From Escherichia phage EcNP1: DNA of 64,000 bases. Below the pieces are notes generated by a model. That model was given only the letters and a program-made list of their open reading frames with translations. It had not been told where the DNA came from and did no database searches. The stretch is taken from the sequence record NC_054910.1. The stretch is one strand, 5' to 3'. A program made the position numbers and the translations under genes. Shown here piece after piece: positions 47,526 to 50,091 of this stretch; positions within the stretch are counted from its first letter, which is position 1; the number at the start of each line of letters is the position of its first letter.

Positions 47526-47615
47526 TTAAAATCCTTGAAATAATTTATCGGTTGGTTATTAATTATTTATTACTTTGTTATTATCCGCAACAGCATTCTC
47601 TATGTGATTCAAACT

Positions 47616-47642
47616 AAAAAGCCCCAACCTTTCGGTCGGGGC
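47616..47642 (-). terminator. Rho-independent terminator, GNRA tetraloop (repeat copy 1)
   Basis: Minus RNA GCCCCGACCGAAAGGUUGGGGC followed by UUUUU. Confidence 0.75.
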
Positions 47643-47650
47643 TAAGAATG

Positions 47651-48123
47651 TTATTTGATTTGTTTAGCAGACCAAATGCGGTCTTTAATAATTTTTTGGA
47701 TGTCTTCAACATACTCTAGGTCATGAGCATGTGGGTTGTCTTTGAAACTATAAGCACGGGCTAACTTTTGGCCTTCGGTTTTGATTACTAAAAGCTCTTT
47801 AAGGATAGCTTCATATTTAGCGATAATTCCTTTAACAATATTTTTTTCTTGTGCAGCTTTAGGATCTGCTTTAGGAGCAGGTTTACCGGAAGGTTTTTCG
47901 AAAGCCGCACCAGTAGCAACCAGGCTTTTCCAGGCGGTGGTAACATAGTTACCCACAAAGCCTTCAGCTCTCATATCGTCGTAGAACTTGTACCTGGATT
48001 CGTCAGAAGCATCTTTATAAGAATATTTACCAGCTTTAATAGCAGCAGTTGCTACAGCGCGAACATCTGAAGCGGATGCTTCATTTAACACCACTTCATT
48101 TAAAATTGAGCATATGATTTCAT
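47651..48123 (-). pseudogene. Internal-protein-like gene disrupted by frameshift
   Basis: ATG 48121-48123 with RBS AGGAAA encodes MKSYAQF then TAA; 147-codon ORF continues in another frame; ~14-nt tandem duplication at junction. Confidence 0.45.
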
Positions 48124-48162
48124 CTTATTTCCTGTTTTAATTCGTGATTTAATACACTACTA

Positions 48163-48170
48163 TATTTATA
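48163..48170 (-). promoter_or_regulatory. Late promoter TATAAATA
   Basis: Plus tatttata between terminator copy 2 and the disrupted Ip-like gene. Confidence 0.55.
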
Positions 48171-48172
48171 CT

Positions 48173-48199
48173 AAAAAGCCCCAACCTTTCGGTCGGGGC
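48173..48199 (-). terminator. Rho-independent terminator, GNRA tetraloop (repeat copy 2)
   Basis: Identical to the hairpin at 47616-47642; ends the tRNA/stable RNA transcription unit. Confidence 0.75.
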
Positions 48200-48251
48200 T
48201 AAGCCTTGCGGCAACCTTGTCGGGGTTCCACCTGCTAAGGCAAGTGTTTGT

Positions 48252-48343
48252 ACGAAACGCCGGGATTTGAACCCGGTTATTAAGCAGTTGACGCTACTCA
48301 ATATTTTTAAAAGGCCATATCTCGACCATATCCGAACGTTCCG
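48252..48343 (-). ncRNA. tRNA-like stable RNA candidate
   Basis: Perfect T-arm CCGGG-UUCAAAU-CCCGG and a 7-bp acceptor-like stem with one G-U pair; no clean anticodon arm; no ORF >=60 aa in 48203-48511. Confidence 0.3.
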
Positions 48344-48511
48344 TCAAAAACGCTACTCGGCTTACGGCAAAGATATTTCCTCGAATCGATAATTCGGTGC
48401 GCCGTTTCTGCTGTGATGTAAGAGGGCATCAACAAATCATAAAGATTTATTAACGCAATTCCTTACCCAGGGAACATCAGTCCGACGACTTACCGGTAGC
48501 GACCCGGTTTC

Positions 48512-48862
48512 TTAATATTCTTTTAAAGCATCAATTTGTTCACGGCGTTTACGCCATAAATCAATTGCTTCATACGCAGATTCAGCATTTCGAATTGGAC
48601 GGCATTTATATAAAGACTTGTGATTTTGATATTGTGTAGATAACGGAATTTTATCTAAAAGGTCTTTACGTTCAAAATATTCGTAACCATCTAAACCAAA
48701 TGAACGATTTTTGAGAAATTGCCAATGACCATATTCGTTTTCGACATAAACATAATCTGCATGCTGATAAAGTAAATTAATTACACGTTCAGAAATAACA
48801 GTGTCATTATGATTAAAATAGAATGTTAAATCATGAACTACTAAATAAACATTACCTTTCAT
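48512..48862 (-). CDS. Hypothetical protein
   Basis: ORF track 116 aa; RBS GAGGAAAAT. Confidence 0.65.
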   Translation of the reverse strand: MKGNVYLVVHDLTFYFNHNDTVISERVINLLYQHADYVYVENEYGHWQFLKNRSFGLDGYEYFERKDLLDKIPLSTQYQNHKSLYKCRPIRNAESAYEAIDLWRKRREQIDALKEY

Positions 48863-48878: not shown

Positions 48879-48954
48879 TGGTCGAGGCAGTAGGGATCGA
48901 ACCTACGACCTAGGACTTAGAAGGTCCTTGCTCTTCCTTCTGAGCTATGCCTCG
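48879..48954 (-). tRNA. tRNA-Arg (anticodon UCU)
   Basis: Manual fold: acceptor CGAGGCA/UGCCUCG, T-arm GGTTCGATCC, anticodon loop CUUCUAA, encoded CCA. Confidence 0.85.
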
Positions 48955-48958
48955 GATT

Positions 48959-49033
48959 TGGCGGACGTGATAGGATTCGAACCTATAACCAATCGCTTAA
49001 CAGGCGATCGCTCTGCCATTGAGCTACACATCC
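48959..49033 (-). tRNA. tRNA-Asn (anticodon GUU)
   Basis: Manual fold: acceptor GGAUGUG/CACGUCC with G-U, anticodon stem AUCGC/GCGAU, loop CUGUUAA. Confidence 0.8.
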
Positions 49034-49037
49034 AAAT

Positions 49038-49124
49038 TGGTGGGGAGTGATGGAGTCGAACCACCCGAGTCGCAATGACAATGGATTTACAGTCCACACC
49101 GCTACCTCTACGGAATAACTCCCC
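49038..49124 (-). tRNA. tRNA-Tyr (anticodon GUA), long variable arm
   Basis: Manual fold: 87 nt, acceptor GGGGAGU/ACUCCCC, anticodon loop CUGUAAA. Confidence 0.8.
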
Positions 49125-49133
49125 AAATTAATT

Positions 49134-49208
49134 TGGTGGCCCTGGGTGGAATTGAACCACCATCTGGCGATTATGAGTCGCTTGCTTGAACCTTCCAGCT
49201 ACAGGGCC
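49134..49208 (-). tRNA. tRNA with anticodon CAU (Ile2-type or Met)
   Basis: Manual fold: acceptor GGCCCUG/CAGGGCC, perfect T-arm, anticodon loop CUCAUAA; occupies the T4 tRNA-Ile position. Confidence 0.75.
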
Positions 49209-49209
49209 T

Positions 49210-49285
49210 TGGTGCTGATTGACGGAATCGAACCGCCGACCTTCTCATTACAAGTGAGTTGCTCTACCTACTGAGCTAAATCAGC
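49210..49285 (-). tRNA. tRNA-Thr (anticodon UGU)
   Basis: Manual fold: acceptor GCUGAUU/AAUCAGC, anticodon loop CUUGUAA. Confidence 0.85.
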
Positions 49286-49290
49286 AAAAC

Positions 49291-49380
49291 TGGCGGAGGC
49301 GATAGGATTCGAACCTATGAGTCGCCGGAGCGACTGCCGGTTTTCAAGACCGGTGCATTAAACCACTCTGCCACGCCTCC
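49291..49380 (-). tRNA. tRNA-Ser (anticodon UGA), long variable arm
   Basis: Manual fold: 90 nt, acceptor GGAGGCG/CGCCUCC, anticodon stem CCGGU/ACCGG, loop CUUGAAA. Confidence 0.85.
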
Positions 49381-49382
49381 AG

Positions 49383-49456
49383 TCTCCATACAAGGATTTG
49401 AACCTTGGACCTCCTGATCCCAAATCAGGCGCTCTACCAAACTGAGCTACACGGAG
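49383..49456 (-). tRNA. tRNA-Pro (anticodon UGG)
   Basis: Manual fold: acceptor with two G-U pairs, anticodon loop UUUGGGA, CCA not encoded. Confidence 0.8.
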
Positions 49457-49466
49457 TAAATTAAAT

Positions 49467-49540
<74 letters not shown>

Positions 49541-49545
49541 AAATT

Positions 49546-49632
49546 TGGTGCGAGAAGTGGGACTCGAACCCACAAGGAAATCATTCCGCAGCATTTTAAG
49601 TGCTGTGCCTTTACCAATTTGACCATTCTCGC
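49546..49632 (-). tRNA. tRNA-Leu (anticodon UAA), long variable arm
   Basis: Manual fold: 87 nt, acceptor GCGAGAA/UUCUCGC, anticodon loop CUUAAAA. Confidence 0.85.
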
Positions 49633-49633
49633 G

Positions 49634-49706
49634 CTGGGAATAAAGGACTCGAACCTTTGCATCCTGGAATCAAAATCCAGTGCCTTACCAACTTGGCTAA
49701 TTCCCA
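49634..49706 (-). tRNA. tRNA-Gln (anticodon UUG)
   Basis: Manual fold: acceptor UGGGAAU/AUUCCCA, anticodon loop UUUUGAU. Confidence 0.85.
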
Positions 49707-49803: not shown

Positions 49804-50091
49804 TTACCATTTATGATAATACATATTTACGATGCAGTCAAGACCTAAAGGATTCTTGAAAATATCATATTCAAGAGGACCTTTTTCCGTTTCAATAAAG
49901 AAATCAAAGTTAACTGTGTTAAATTTACGGTCTTCCTTCACTAATTTAACTTGAGAAGATGAACGGTCAATGTAAACCTTTTCAACTTCAAAATATGTTA
50001 AAATGCCGTAATCATCAATCAAGGCTTTAGCTGCTTCTTGATCATATTTATATCCATTTTCAATGGATGATACTTTCGCATAAAGAATCAC
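49804..50091 (-). CDS. Hypothetical protein
   Basis: ORF track 95 aa. Confidence 0.62.
   Translation of the reverse strand: MILYAKVSSIENGYKYDQEAAKALIDDYGILTYFEVEKVYIDRSSSQVKLVKEDRKFNTVNFDFFIETEKGPLEYDIFKNPLGLDCIVNMYYHKW

Follow-up and report, generated by a model that had tools for sequence, protein, structure and literature searches.

Probable orthologues of the T4 species 1 and species 2 RNAs downstream of the tRNA genes of Escherichia phage EcNP1

The EcNP1 locus and its T4 counterparts

Positions 48515..48251 on the minus strand of Escherichia phage EcNP1 very probably hold the orthologues of phage T4 rnaD (species 2 RNA) and rnaC (species 1 RNA), as judged by comparison with the T4 sequences. 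Species 1 and species 2 are small stable RNAs of phage T4 that have been known since the 1970s; the element is real and already known, not new. The window analyzed here, 64,000 nucleotides of sequence record NC_054910.1, is a Tequatrovirus (T4-like) genome sequence.

The initial annotation described positions 48203–48511 as noncoding and, indeed, ORFs of 60 amino acids or more are absent from both strands, the longest having 50, 42 and 41 amino acids. Its account of the surroundings also held: the stretch is bounded on one side by the ORF at 48512–48862 and the tRNA cluster, and on the other by a terminator hairpin at 48200..48177. Ten tRNA genes (Gln, Leu, Gly, Pro, Ser, Thr, Met, Tyr, Asn and Arg; 48879..49706, minus strand) lie upstream of rnaD and rnaC on the same strand. 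Between tRNA-Arg and rnaD there is a 116-amino-acid ORF (phrog_3355; 48512..48862, minus strand), the counterpart of the "trna.2" ORF of T2L; primer #24 of PMC2330249 closely fits the start of this ORF, with one mismatch. Searches of Pfam and PHROGs with both flanking ORFs yielded matches only to families of unknown function. The stretch at 48203–48511 is conserved in 800 phage records.

T4 rnaD (NC_000866 71053–71171; X03016 4615–4734) and rnaC (NC_000866 70908–71046; X03016 4741–4877) align to 48515..48251 nearly base for base, with a handful of differences. Over their full lengths, the T4 species 1 RNA is ≈98% identical to EcNP1 rnaC and the species 2 RNA ≈94% identical to EcNP1 rnaD. In both phages, rnaC has the same strand and predicted fold and is the final RNA gene ahead of a shared terminator, and the 6-nt gap between rnaD and rnaC is common to the two. 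The 5′ and 3′ blocks of rnaD and its two-hairpin fold are likewise the same. Among the differences, the rnaC T loop reads UUCAAAU in EcNP1 and UUCGAAU in T4, one pair of the anticodon-like stem is U-G in EcNP1 against U-A in T4, and the 3′ end of rnaD is encoded as ...CACCG in EcNP1 and ...CACCA in T4. Several phage records label the matched stretch rnaC, rnaD or species 2 RNA. The initial annotation had remarked that the stretch lies where T4 has its stable RNA species 1 and 2; the alignments go further and point to direct orthology with both genes.

One difference concerns the layout. In T4, rnaD starts two bases past tRNA-Arg, whereas in EcNP1 the 116-amino-acid trna.2-type ORF comes first. 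The same order, with the ORF before rnaD, is found in Elenatom, EPIMRB01, MLF4 and Shf125875, and it matches the T2L map. It is a layout variant inside the rnaD family and does not exclude EcNP1 from it.

An Rfam search, which had been suggested together with the first description of the locus, made no call in the stretch: at gathering thresholds, only the 10 tRNAs passed in the whole window, and at permissive E-values positions 48100–48600 gave only sub-threshold noise. ARAGORN, run over the window, called the 10 upstream tRNAs and nothing in the stretch. A covariance model of the rnaC family gave one match in the window, of 160 bits, covering 48390..48248 of the minus strand. Neither rnaC nor rnaD has an Rfam family.

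A predicted tRNA-shaped fold for rnaC

By the ends given in X03016, rnaC comprises 137 nt at 48252..48388 on the minus strand, and by those in NC_000866, 139 nt at 48251–48389. This part of the stretch folds with z = −4.17, and none of 200 shuffled sequences folded as well. An alignment of 27 distinct homologues from at least nine genera was used to derive its structure, which is modeled as a four-arm, tRNA-shaped cloverleaf with an acceptor-like helix, a long arm, an anticodon-like arm and a T arm. In this alignment, 93% of the cells were paired and 24 of the 45 pairs showed compensatory changes, a result matched by none of 500 shuffles. The cloverleaf obtained with RNAalifold had compensatory changes in 20 of 38 pairs and 97.5% of cells paired, compared to ≈42% when the partners were slid; again, none of 500 shuffles reached this value. 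Structural conservation among related phages, the absence of which was one part of what the initial annotation had named as refuting it, is present in the form of these 27 homologues and their compensatory changes.

The acceptor-like helix is formed by a 5′ strand, CGAUUCG (48382..48388, minus strand), which pairs with a 3′ strand, CGUUUCG (48253..48259, minus strand), and contains two conserved U·U layers in the middle. A discriminator-like U (48252) comes next, ahead of ACA. In the third layer, a change from A-U to G-C divides the Tequatrovirus/Mosigvirus-type sequences from the others, and in phage PM2 both U·U layers have become U-A while the first layer has changed from C-G to A-U. The annotated ends of rnaC in X03016 coincide with this helix, starting at the C of its first pair and finishing at the discriminator U. 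At the position of the tRNA D arm there is a long arm of 70 nt (48312..48381, minus strand), ending in an apical hairpin with the loop UUGACG (48342–48347). The anticodon-like arm (48278..48303, minus strand) consists of a 10-bp stem and a 6-nt loop, CGUCAA (48288–48293), and the T arm, CCGGG-UUCAAAU-CCCGG (48260..48276, minus strand), has a middle stem pair that alternates between U-A and G-C. The loops of rnaC and the two U·U layers are nearly invariant across at least nine genera. A GG dinucleotide beside the junction could interact with the T loop in the manner of G18/G19 in tRNA.

The initial annotation recognized a tRNA-like module here, and rnaC is indeed tRNA-like, with the perfect T arm it had reported located at 48276..48260 on the minus strand. 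The acceptor-like helix and the anticodon arm were misread. The statement that there was no clean anticodon arm was wrong, as a 10-bp arm with compensatory changes in 8 of its 10 pairs is present, its loop having 6 nt and not the canonical 7. The proposed fold, a tRNA-like module of ≈92 nt with CGGAACG (48343..48337) and CGUUUCG (48259..48253) as the acceptor, a T arm and no anticodon arm, is extremely improbable. Its seven pairs, one of them G-U, can be drawn in the EcNP1 window and in T4, spanning 91 nt, and the Rfam tRNA model (RF00005) aligns weakly in this area, at 14.0 bits where the threshold is 29 (E = 6.3). The pairing is not conserved, however: among 21 homologues the stem had no compensatory changes, and pair 50–139 was broken in 14 of the 21. 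The G-to-A change found outside Tequatrovirus breaks this stem and improves the competing hairpin, turning a U·G into a U-A, and the annotated mature 5′ end of rnaC lies 45 nt upstream of it. CGGAACG belongs to the covarying apical hairpin of the long arm, the one with the loop UUGACG, and makes up its 3′ strand.

Compared to a canonical tRNA (RF00005), rnaC has the same 5-bp T stem with a 7-nt loop of the UUCRAAU type, a predicted four-arm junction, and a mature 5′ end at the first pair of its terminal helix. That helix has seven layers and one unpaired U after it, in partial likeness to a tRNA acceptor stem. In several genera rnaC is also placed within tRNA gene arrays. It differs from tRNA in the two conserved U·U layers of its acceptor-like helix, in the 70-nt multi-helix arm that replaces a D arm with its 3–4-bp stem and 8–11-nt loop, in having a 10-bp stem and 6-nt loop instead of a 5-bp anticodon stem and 7-nt loop, and in the spacing between the arms. 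The 3′ sequence is UACA in EcNP1; Marfavirus-type phages and PM2 are the only ones to encode CCA, as UCCA. Because there is no usable anticodon loop, decoding by rnaC is unlikely. In Winklervirus-type homologues, the T loop no longer has the tRNA-like sequence, so that mimicry of that loop is not a universal requirement.

As modeled, rnaC resembles the tRNA-like domain of tmRNA, the bacterial Y-RNA-like YrlA and the tRNA-like 3′ ends of plant viruses in placing an acceptor/T-arm mimic within a larger, non-decoding RNA. Such mimics are typically processed by tRNA enzymes. There is no sequence or Rfam relationship between rnaC and any of these RNAs; tmRNA itself was not found in the window by ARAGORN or Rfam, and a tag reading frame is absent.

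The apical loops of the long arm (UUGACG) and the anticodon-like arm (CGUCAA) are perfectly complementary. The six loop–loop pairs hold in 100% of the cells in one version of the alignment (A2) and 99.4% in another (A4), and random loops matched in length and composition would show such complementarity with a chance of ≈1.2 × 10⁻³. The loop–loop duplex energies were −5.5 and −7.6 kcal/mol. In Marfavirus-type rnaC, the two loops change together, from A-U to G-C (UUGGCG/CGCCAA), which suggests a kissing contact, while in PM2 the pairing is reduced to four pairs. Judging from the sequences, UUGACG most likely pairs with CGUCAA, either within one molecule or between two. Such pairing would lock rnaC into a compact, nuclease-resistant shape. 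Complementary hairpin loops likewise occur in the kissing complexes of HIV TAR/TAR*, ColE1 RNA I/RNA II and the phi29 pRNA; unlike in those systems, both rnaC loops, of 6 nt each, are inside one 137-nt RNA, and the contact is a predicted one. The lineage-level compensatory change on which the kissing contact rests is a single one.

Taken jointly, a closed, tRNA-shaped rnaC with two U·U layers in its acceptor helix, UUGACG and CGUCAA paired, and a possible contact between the GG and the T loop is a structural model that we consider possible but rather unlikely to be right in all of its parts together. If this architecture is true and previously undescribed, it would provide a concrete, testable model for a 50-year-old RNA without an assigned function, namely a non-decoding tRNA mimic that is handled by tRNA enzymes and possibly titrates one of them. 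The comparative fold, with its corrected helix, U·U layers, complementary loops and placement in a tRNA slot, points to precise mutations, and to end mapping, for testing the role of the RNA.

rnaD, transcription and processing

The rnaD homologue is ≈121 nt long (48395..48515, minus strand), as aligned to T4 rnaD and the X03016 ends. Because an ORF, and not tRNA-Arg, lies upstream, homology does not fix the 5′ end of EcNP1 rnaD; the first bases of the RNA overlap with the stop codon of the ORF at 48512–48862. The middle of rnaD is variable and is flanked by two conserved blocks, GAAACCGGGUCGCUACCGGUAAGUCGUCGGACUGAUGUUCCCUG on the 5′ side and UCACAGCAGAAACGGCGCACC(G) on the 3′ side. This part of the stretch folds with z = −2.83, and 2 of 200 shuffled sequences folded as well. 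RNAalifold gave 23 pairs, five of them with compensatory changes. Minimum-free-energy folds of 10 homologues agreed on a 5′ hairpin, ACCGG-GUCGCUA-CCGGU (48492..48508, minus strand), the closing A-U pair of which is replaced by G-C in RB3 and Shf125875 and by G-U in MLF4. We model rnaD as a separate module, made up of this 5′ hairpin and a long irregular hairpin with a replaceable tip. The 5′ hairpin also registers as a terminator-like site on the opposite strand.

Downstream of rnaC, an intrinsic terminator, AGCCCCGACC-GAAA-GGUUGGGGCU followed by UUUUU (48172..48200, minus strand), closes the unit of tRNAs, rnaD and rnaC. Its hairpin (48200..48177, minus strand) has 10 bp, seven of them GC, and precedes a T run; the same element is found 3′ of T4 rnaC. 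The trailer between rnaC and the terminator (48201..48250, minus strand) contains three small predicted hairpins and is also present in Dhakavirus, which has no rnaC. No match to the T4 late-promoter motif (TATAAATA) was found between the tRNA cluster and rnaD, the nearest one upstream on the same strand being at 50052..50045. Within the ORF at 48512–48862 there is one sigma-70-like match (48675..48648), no better than chance.

The T4 tRNA region was previously described as producing one primary transcript, which terminates after the species I RNA gene (PMC2330249). According to earlier work on T4, both RNAs accumulate as stable RNAs. T4 RNAC has been reported by Northern blot and RNAD was classed as late by RNA-seq, the Northern probes being ssrA and RNAC (PMC9697503). 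In EcNP1, rnaD and rnaC would form the 3′ portion of the tRNA-operon transcript, which would stop at the terminator (48200..48172). Because rnaC is predicted to form a tRNA-shaped cloverleaf, it would be cut out by the host tRNA-processing enzymes. From the geometry of the fold and the annotated end, RNase P is expected to cut directly 5′ of C48388. The 6-nt spacer between rnaD and rnaC, AAUUAU (48389..48394, minus strand), would then provide U48389 as position −1 of the cleavage site, and the 3′ end of rnaC would be trimmed back to about U48252.

Distribution, alternative readings and possible function

Phage records matching rnaC number 745, of which 682 are 95–100% identical to it, making it tighter than the adjacent rnaD, for which 733 records match with 76–100% identity among the matches listed. 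In Karamvirus, Moonvirus, Gelderlandvirus and Winklervirus phages and in Erwinia phage COW86c, a tRNA gene flanks rnaC on each side at a distance of 4–6 nt. It is cleanly missing from Dhakavirus and phage AV115.

The stretch might consist of decayed tRNA pseudogenes or leftover spacer, kept only by lying between selected genes, a reading that could draw on the tRNA-type T arm of rnaC and its location in tRNA arrays, on the lack of rnaC in Dhakavirus and AV115 without obvious harm, and on the description of the region as non-essential for phage development (PMC2330249). This is very improbable given the identity of rnaC across 682 of the 745 records, the compensatory changes that maintain 24 of its 45 pairs, the near invariance of its loops and U·U layers over at least nine genera, and the stable transcripts documented in T4 (PMC9697503). 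We give next to no credence to small protein-coding genes, even though the stretch contains the ORFs of 50, 42 and 41 amino acids and is overlapped by "hypothetical protein" CDS features in many GenBank records. The 42-amino-acid frame is interrupted by a stop codon in T4 itself as well as in homologues of the Gelderlandvirus, Marfavirus and Kanagawavirus types. Elsewhere, the 50-amino-acid frame has lost its start or is cut short by a stop or a tRNA gene. With the frames broken in T4 and the distant homologues, coding potential was rejected for both ORFs; the substitutions track the RNA pairing instead. In many T4-like GenBank records, the species 1 and species 2 genes are left unannotated or lie under such spurious "hypothetical protein" ORFs.

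We are left with two conserved RNAs, found in hundreds of phages and, in the case of rnaC, in at least nine genera, yet without an assigned function. We found no described function for species 1 or species 2 RNA in the open literature, and papers from 2010, 2022 and 2025 call their function unknown. We tentatively suggest that rnaC might be a tRNA mimic that occupies a tRNA-recognizing host or phage protein. Alternatively, the RNAs could act in cis, as a structured 3′ end that shields or punctuates the transcript of the tRNA operon, or be trans-acting regulators whose conserved single-stranded blocks base-pair with mRNAs of the phage or its host. In favor of such roles, rnaD keeps its long 5′ and 3′ blocks invariant to a degree that its helices do not call for, in T4-type phages the two RNAs form the 3′ end of the operon, and a T4-like phage evolved on one host acquired a convergent SNP in rnaD (PMC12685909). 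The RNAs have also been named small regulatory RNAs, although without evidence (PMC9697503). Nevertheless, rnaC lies between two tRNAs in at least five genera, where protection or punctuation of a 3′ end is unneeded, and its conserved loops are complementary to each other and not left free. The 2010 review stated that no trans-acting small RNA had been characterized in T4, and a target is known for neither RNA. A cis-acting or base-pairing role is in our estimation possible but unlikely.

The reach of the rnaC family was explored with pattern searches and BLAST walks. One rnaC pattern gave 55 chance matches in bacterial and archaeal genomes, none of which was confirmed by the covariance model. 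BLAST walks starting from Melville, F48 and PM2 reached members of Gelderlandvirus, Kanagawavirus, Marfavirus, Winklervirus and Mosugukvirus, with no rnaC relatives beyond the members of those five genera. In metagenome contigs, one rnaC pattern yielded three true loci among 22, and two degenerate rnaC patterns used on IMG/VR found ≈14 true loci, all of known types.

Identity and setting of the 48203-48511 stretch

The window comes from the genome of a T4-like phage (Tequatrovirus). In a search with 371 bases spanning the stretch at 48203-48511, 800 phage records matched, 678 of them with at least 80% query coverage, the best match being Escherichia phage vB_EcoM_Nami at 99.5% identity. ARAGORN and Rfam identified ten tRNA genes on the minus strand (Gln, Leu, Gly, Pro, Ser, Thr, Met, Tyr, Asn and Arg; 48879-49706). 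Between tRNA-Arg and the stretch lies a 116-aa ORF on the same strand (48512-48862; phrog_3355, unknown function), which gave no Pfam match, and on the other side is a terminator, a 10-bp hairpin with 7 G-C pairs followed by a T run (48200..48172, minus). The stretch itself contains no ORF reaching 60 aa and no RNA gene detectable by ARAGORN or Rfam; a permissive Rfam scan of 48100-48600, a search proposed in the initial annotation, gave sub-threshold noise only, the tRNA model scoring 14.0 bits where the gathering cutoff is 29. Since the tRNA cluster, ORF and terminator were found as stated, that annotation had described the setting correctly.

The T4 RefSeq record annotates rnaC ("species 1 RNA") at 70908-71046 and rnaD ("species 2 RNA") at 71053-71171, directly downstream of tRNA-Arg. 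The minus strand of the window from ~48515 to 48172 aligns with this part of T4, terminator included, apart from a few substitutions and, in rnaD, two short indels. By this homology, rnaD occupies ~48515..48395 and is followed by the spacer AAUUAU (48394..48389) and by rnaC, which is 137 nt long with the ends of the original T4 record X03016 (48388..48252) or 139 nt with those of NC_000866 (48389..48251). A 50-nt trailer (48201-48250, minus) separates rnaC from the terminator. The stretch is thus a real feature that is already known, the T4 species 1 and species 2 RNA genes, as the initial annotation had proposed from its position. Matched stretches carry rnaC, rnaD or species 2 RNA labels in RB33, Kha5h, ATK47, GiZh, T4T, RB3 and X03016. 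Queried alone, rnaC matched 745 records, 682 at 95% identity or more; rnaD matched 733 and was far more variable (76-100% among the matches listed).

In many GenBank phage records, 48203-48515 and homologous stretches are unannotated or lie under a "hypothetical protein" CDS, and one record labels its copy "Early E3 16 kDa glycoprotein". A 42-aa frame across rnaC was rejected as a gene because a stop codon interrupts it in T4 as well as in distant homologues, and a 50-aa frame because in other lineages it either lacks its start or reads into a stop or into tRNA sequence. "Hypothetical protein" features are nevertheless present here in many database records, and these and similar labels over rnaC and rnaD are likely misannotations.

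Conserved fold of rnaC

For this long-known RNA, the present analysis offers a corrected fold and testable structural predictions. Homologues of rnaC were collected from annotated genomes of Tequatrovirus, Mosigvirus, Karamvirus, Moonvirus, Gelderlandvirus, Kanagawavirus, Marfavirus, Winklervirus and Mosugukvirus, from unclassified Erwinia and Citrobacter phages, and from IMG/VR and metagenome contigs. RNAalifold folded 21 distinct sequences into a four-arm cloverleaf with compensatory changes in 20 of 38 pairs. In this alignment, 97.5% of cells were paired, versus ~42% when partners were slid by one column, and the covariation was matched by none of 500 shuffles. A covariance model built from it had exactly one match in the window (48390..48248, minus; 160 bits) and recovered the most divergent member, from Pectobacterium phage PM2, at 85 bits. 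Extending the alignment to 27 sequences gave compensatory changes in 24 of 45 pairs. Folded singly, the window rnaC gave this cloverleaf as well (-50.1 kcal/mol, z = -4.17).

The acceptor-like helix pairs CGAUUCG (48388..48382, minus, as for all arms) with CGUUUCG (48259..48253). It encloses a long arm with apical loop UUGACG (48381..48312), a linker, UUUAAAAA, an anticodon-like arm with a 10-bp stem and the loop CGUCAA (48303..48278), one unpaired A, and the T arm (48276..48260). Two U.U mismatches among the seven layers of the acceptor-like helix are kept in 26 of 27 sequences; PM2 has U-A at both, and A-U in place of C-G at the first layer. The third layer is A-U in four T4-type sequences (the window, T4, MLF4 and Mosigvirus phage Shf125875) and G-C in 22 others of the 27. 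The 7-bp acceptor-like stem of the initial annotation (48343..48337 with 48259..48253) can be drawn, but was rejected, as it shows no compensatory change and has one pair broken in 14 of 21 sequences. The strand assigned to its 5' side forms the 3' side of the long arm's apical hairpin; of the five pairs beneath that loop, four covary and one varies on a single side.

The loops UUGACG (48347..48342) and CGUCAA (48293..48288) are exact reverse complements, a degree of complementarity that random loops matched in length and composition reach about 1.2 times in 1000. Neither loop varies in any rnaC sequence other than the Marfavirus type, where a two-sided change to UUGGCG and CGCCAA keeps the pairing, and PM2, which retains four of the six pairs. 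For the duplexes, energies of -5.5 and -7.6 kcal/mol are predicted. This single lineage-level compensatory event suggests a kissing interaction, either intra- or intermolecular. A weaker hint comes from the sole lineage without a tRNA-type T loop (L018, from Serratia phage LC53, and IMG/VR contigs L033 and L079), which has UGCAUCC or UGCAUGC instead of UUCGAAU with the stem kept. Here the conserved GG before the 3' strand of the junction-proximal helix has become CG (UGGCC to UCGCC), a co-change that may mark a tertiary contact and would be compatible with a T-loop contact of the G18/G19 kind.

Proposed processing and possible role of rnaC

The rnaC/rnaD stretch is orthologous to and syntenic with that of T4, has a conserved fold and ends at a terminator. 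In T4, co-transcription with the tRNAs and stable RNA accumulation have been established (PMC2330249, PMC9697503): a single ~1.75 kb primary transcript spans the tRNA cluster and ends after the species I gene (PMC2330249), and a 2022 transcriptome study, with Northern blot validation using ssrA and RNAC probes, classed both RNAs as late and of unknown function (PMC9697503). The tRNA region has been called non-essential (PMC2330249). In a 2025 experimental evolution study, a T4-like phage acquired a convergent SNP in its rnaD homologue, the function again being noted as unknown (PMC12685909).

The mature rnaC ends in X03016, starting at the first C of the acceptor-like helix and stopping at the single U after it, fit the helix in the pattern expected of a tRNA-type RNase P substrate, and from these ends and established RNase P specificity we infer that rnaC is one. 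The tRNA-processing machinery would excise rnaC because its acceptor-like helix and T arm mimic tRNA and the annotated ends fit; the product would be stable because it is compact, and would be unable to decode, its anticodon-like loop having 6 nt and probably being paired. As to function, the most likely single idea, which we put forward tentatively, is that rnaC is a tRNA mimic occupying a tRNA-recognising protein; roles in cis or through base pairing rank next and are only slightly less likely.

U-CCA is encoded after the acceptor-like helix in L016, L022, L026, L029, L092, L107 (Marfavirus type) and L114 (PM2), and U-ACA in T4-type phages.

rnaD, genomic modules and terminator repeats

Ten rnaD homologues share one fold, consisting of a 5' hairpin, ACCGG-GUCGCUA-CCGGU (48508..48492, minus), whose closing pair varies between A-U, G-C and G-U, and a second hairpin, long and irregular, that GUCGUCG and CGGCGCAC close. 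At its tip, the apical third comes in three unrelated sequence versions, each forming a hairpin. With compensatory changes in 5 of the 23 consensus pairs, the structural evidence is moderate; the window rnaD has z = -2.83. Its 3' end is ...CACCG, versus ...CACCA encoded in T4 and RB3. The stop codon of the 116-aa ORF overlaps the first conserved bases of rnaD, which may therefore double as the structured 3' end of the ORF mRNA in this phage. The start of this ORF closely matches primer #24 of the SegB paper, with one mismatch, making it the counterpart of trna.2 in the T2L-type layout, which that paper maps as carrying additional tRNAs plus the ORFs trna.1 and trna.2 (PMC2330249).

The two RNAs also occur apart and are thus separable, independent modules. 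Karamvirus, Moonvirus, Gelderlandvirus and Winklervirus phages, as well as Erwinia phage COW86c, lack rnaD and have rnaC flanked on both sides by tRNA genes, from which a few bases separate it. In Dhakavirus (L009, IME540, and L011, SHP1; ~590-640 within the loci), rnaD is kept and rnaC is missing exactly from spacer to 3' tail, leaving the junction ...GGCGCACCGAA/CACTTGCC... and the trailer and terminator region. rnaC thus behaves as a cassette of tRNA size. Bacteria and archaea yielded no homologue: among one representative genome each of 185,579 species, none of 55 pattern matches was confirmed by the covariance model.

In Escherichia phage AV115 (Mosigvirus; L115, 353-424), the 5' three-quarters of tRNA-Asn are fused to the last ~20 bases of rnaC at the shared T-loop sequence GGTTCGAATCC, with everything between tRNA-Asn and the rnaC end deleted. 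This looks like a deletion via recombination between T loops; the T-loop region is where SegB cuts (PMC2330249). ARAGORN and the record both call the chimera "tRNA-Asn", and no pairing is possible between its acceptor strands, GGTGCAT and CGTTTCG.

Two copies of the terminator with its flanks (AAAAAGCCCCAACCTTTCGGTCGGGGCTAAG, plus strand) are present at a distance of 557 bases (47613-47646 and 48170-48203), one following rnaC and the other the next gene, ORF 47651-48094; the wider repeat covers 71 nt at 76% identity. Directly after the rnaC terminator, and upstream of this ORF, comes a T4 late-promoter consensus, TATAAATA (48163-48170, minus). Its position is suggestive only, since across the whole window the motif occurs about as often as chance predicts (11 observed, 10.2 expected). 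The trailer (48201-48250, minus) contains ACCCCGACAAGGUUG, which resembles a degraded copy of the 5' arm and loop of the terminator, GCCCCGACCGAAAGGUUG.
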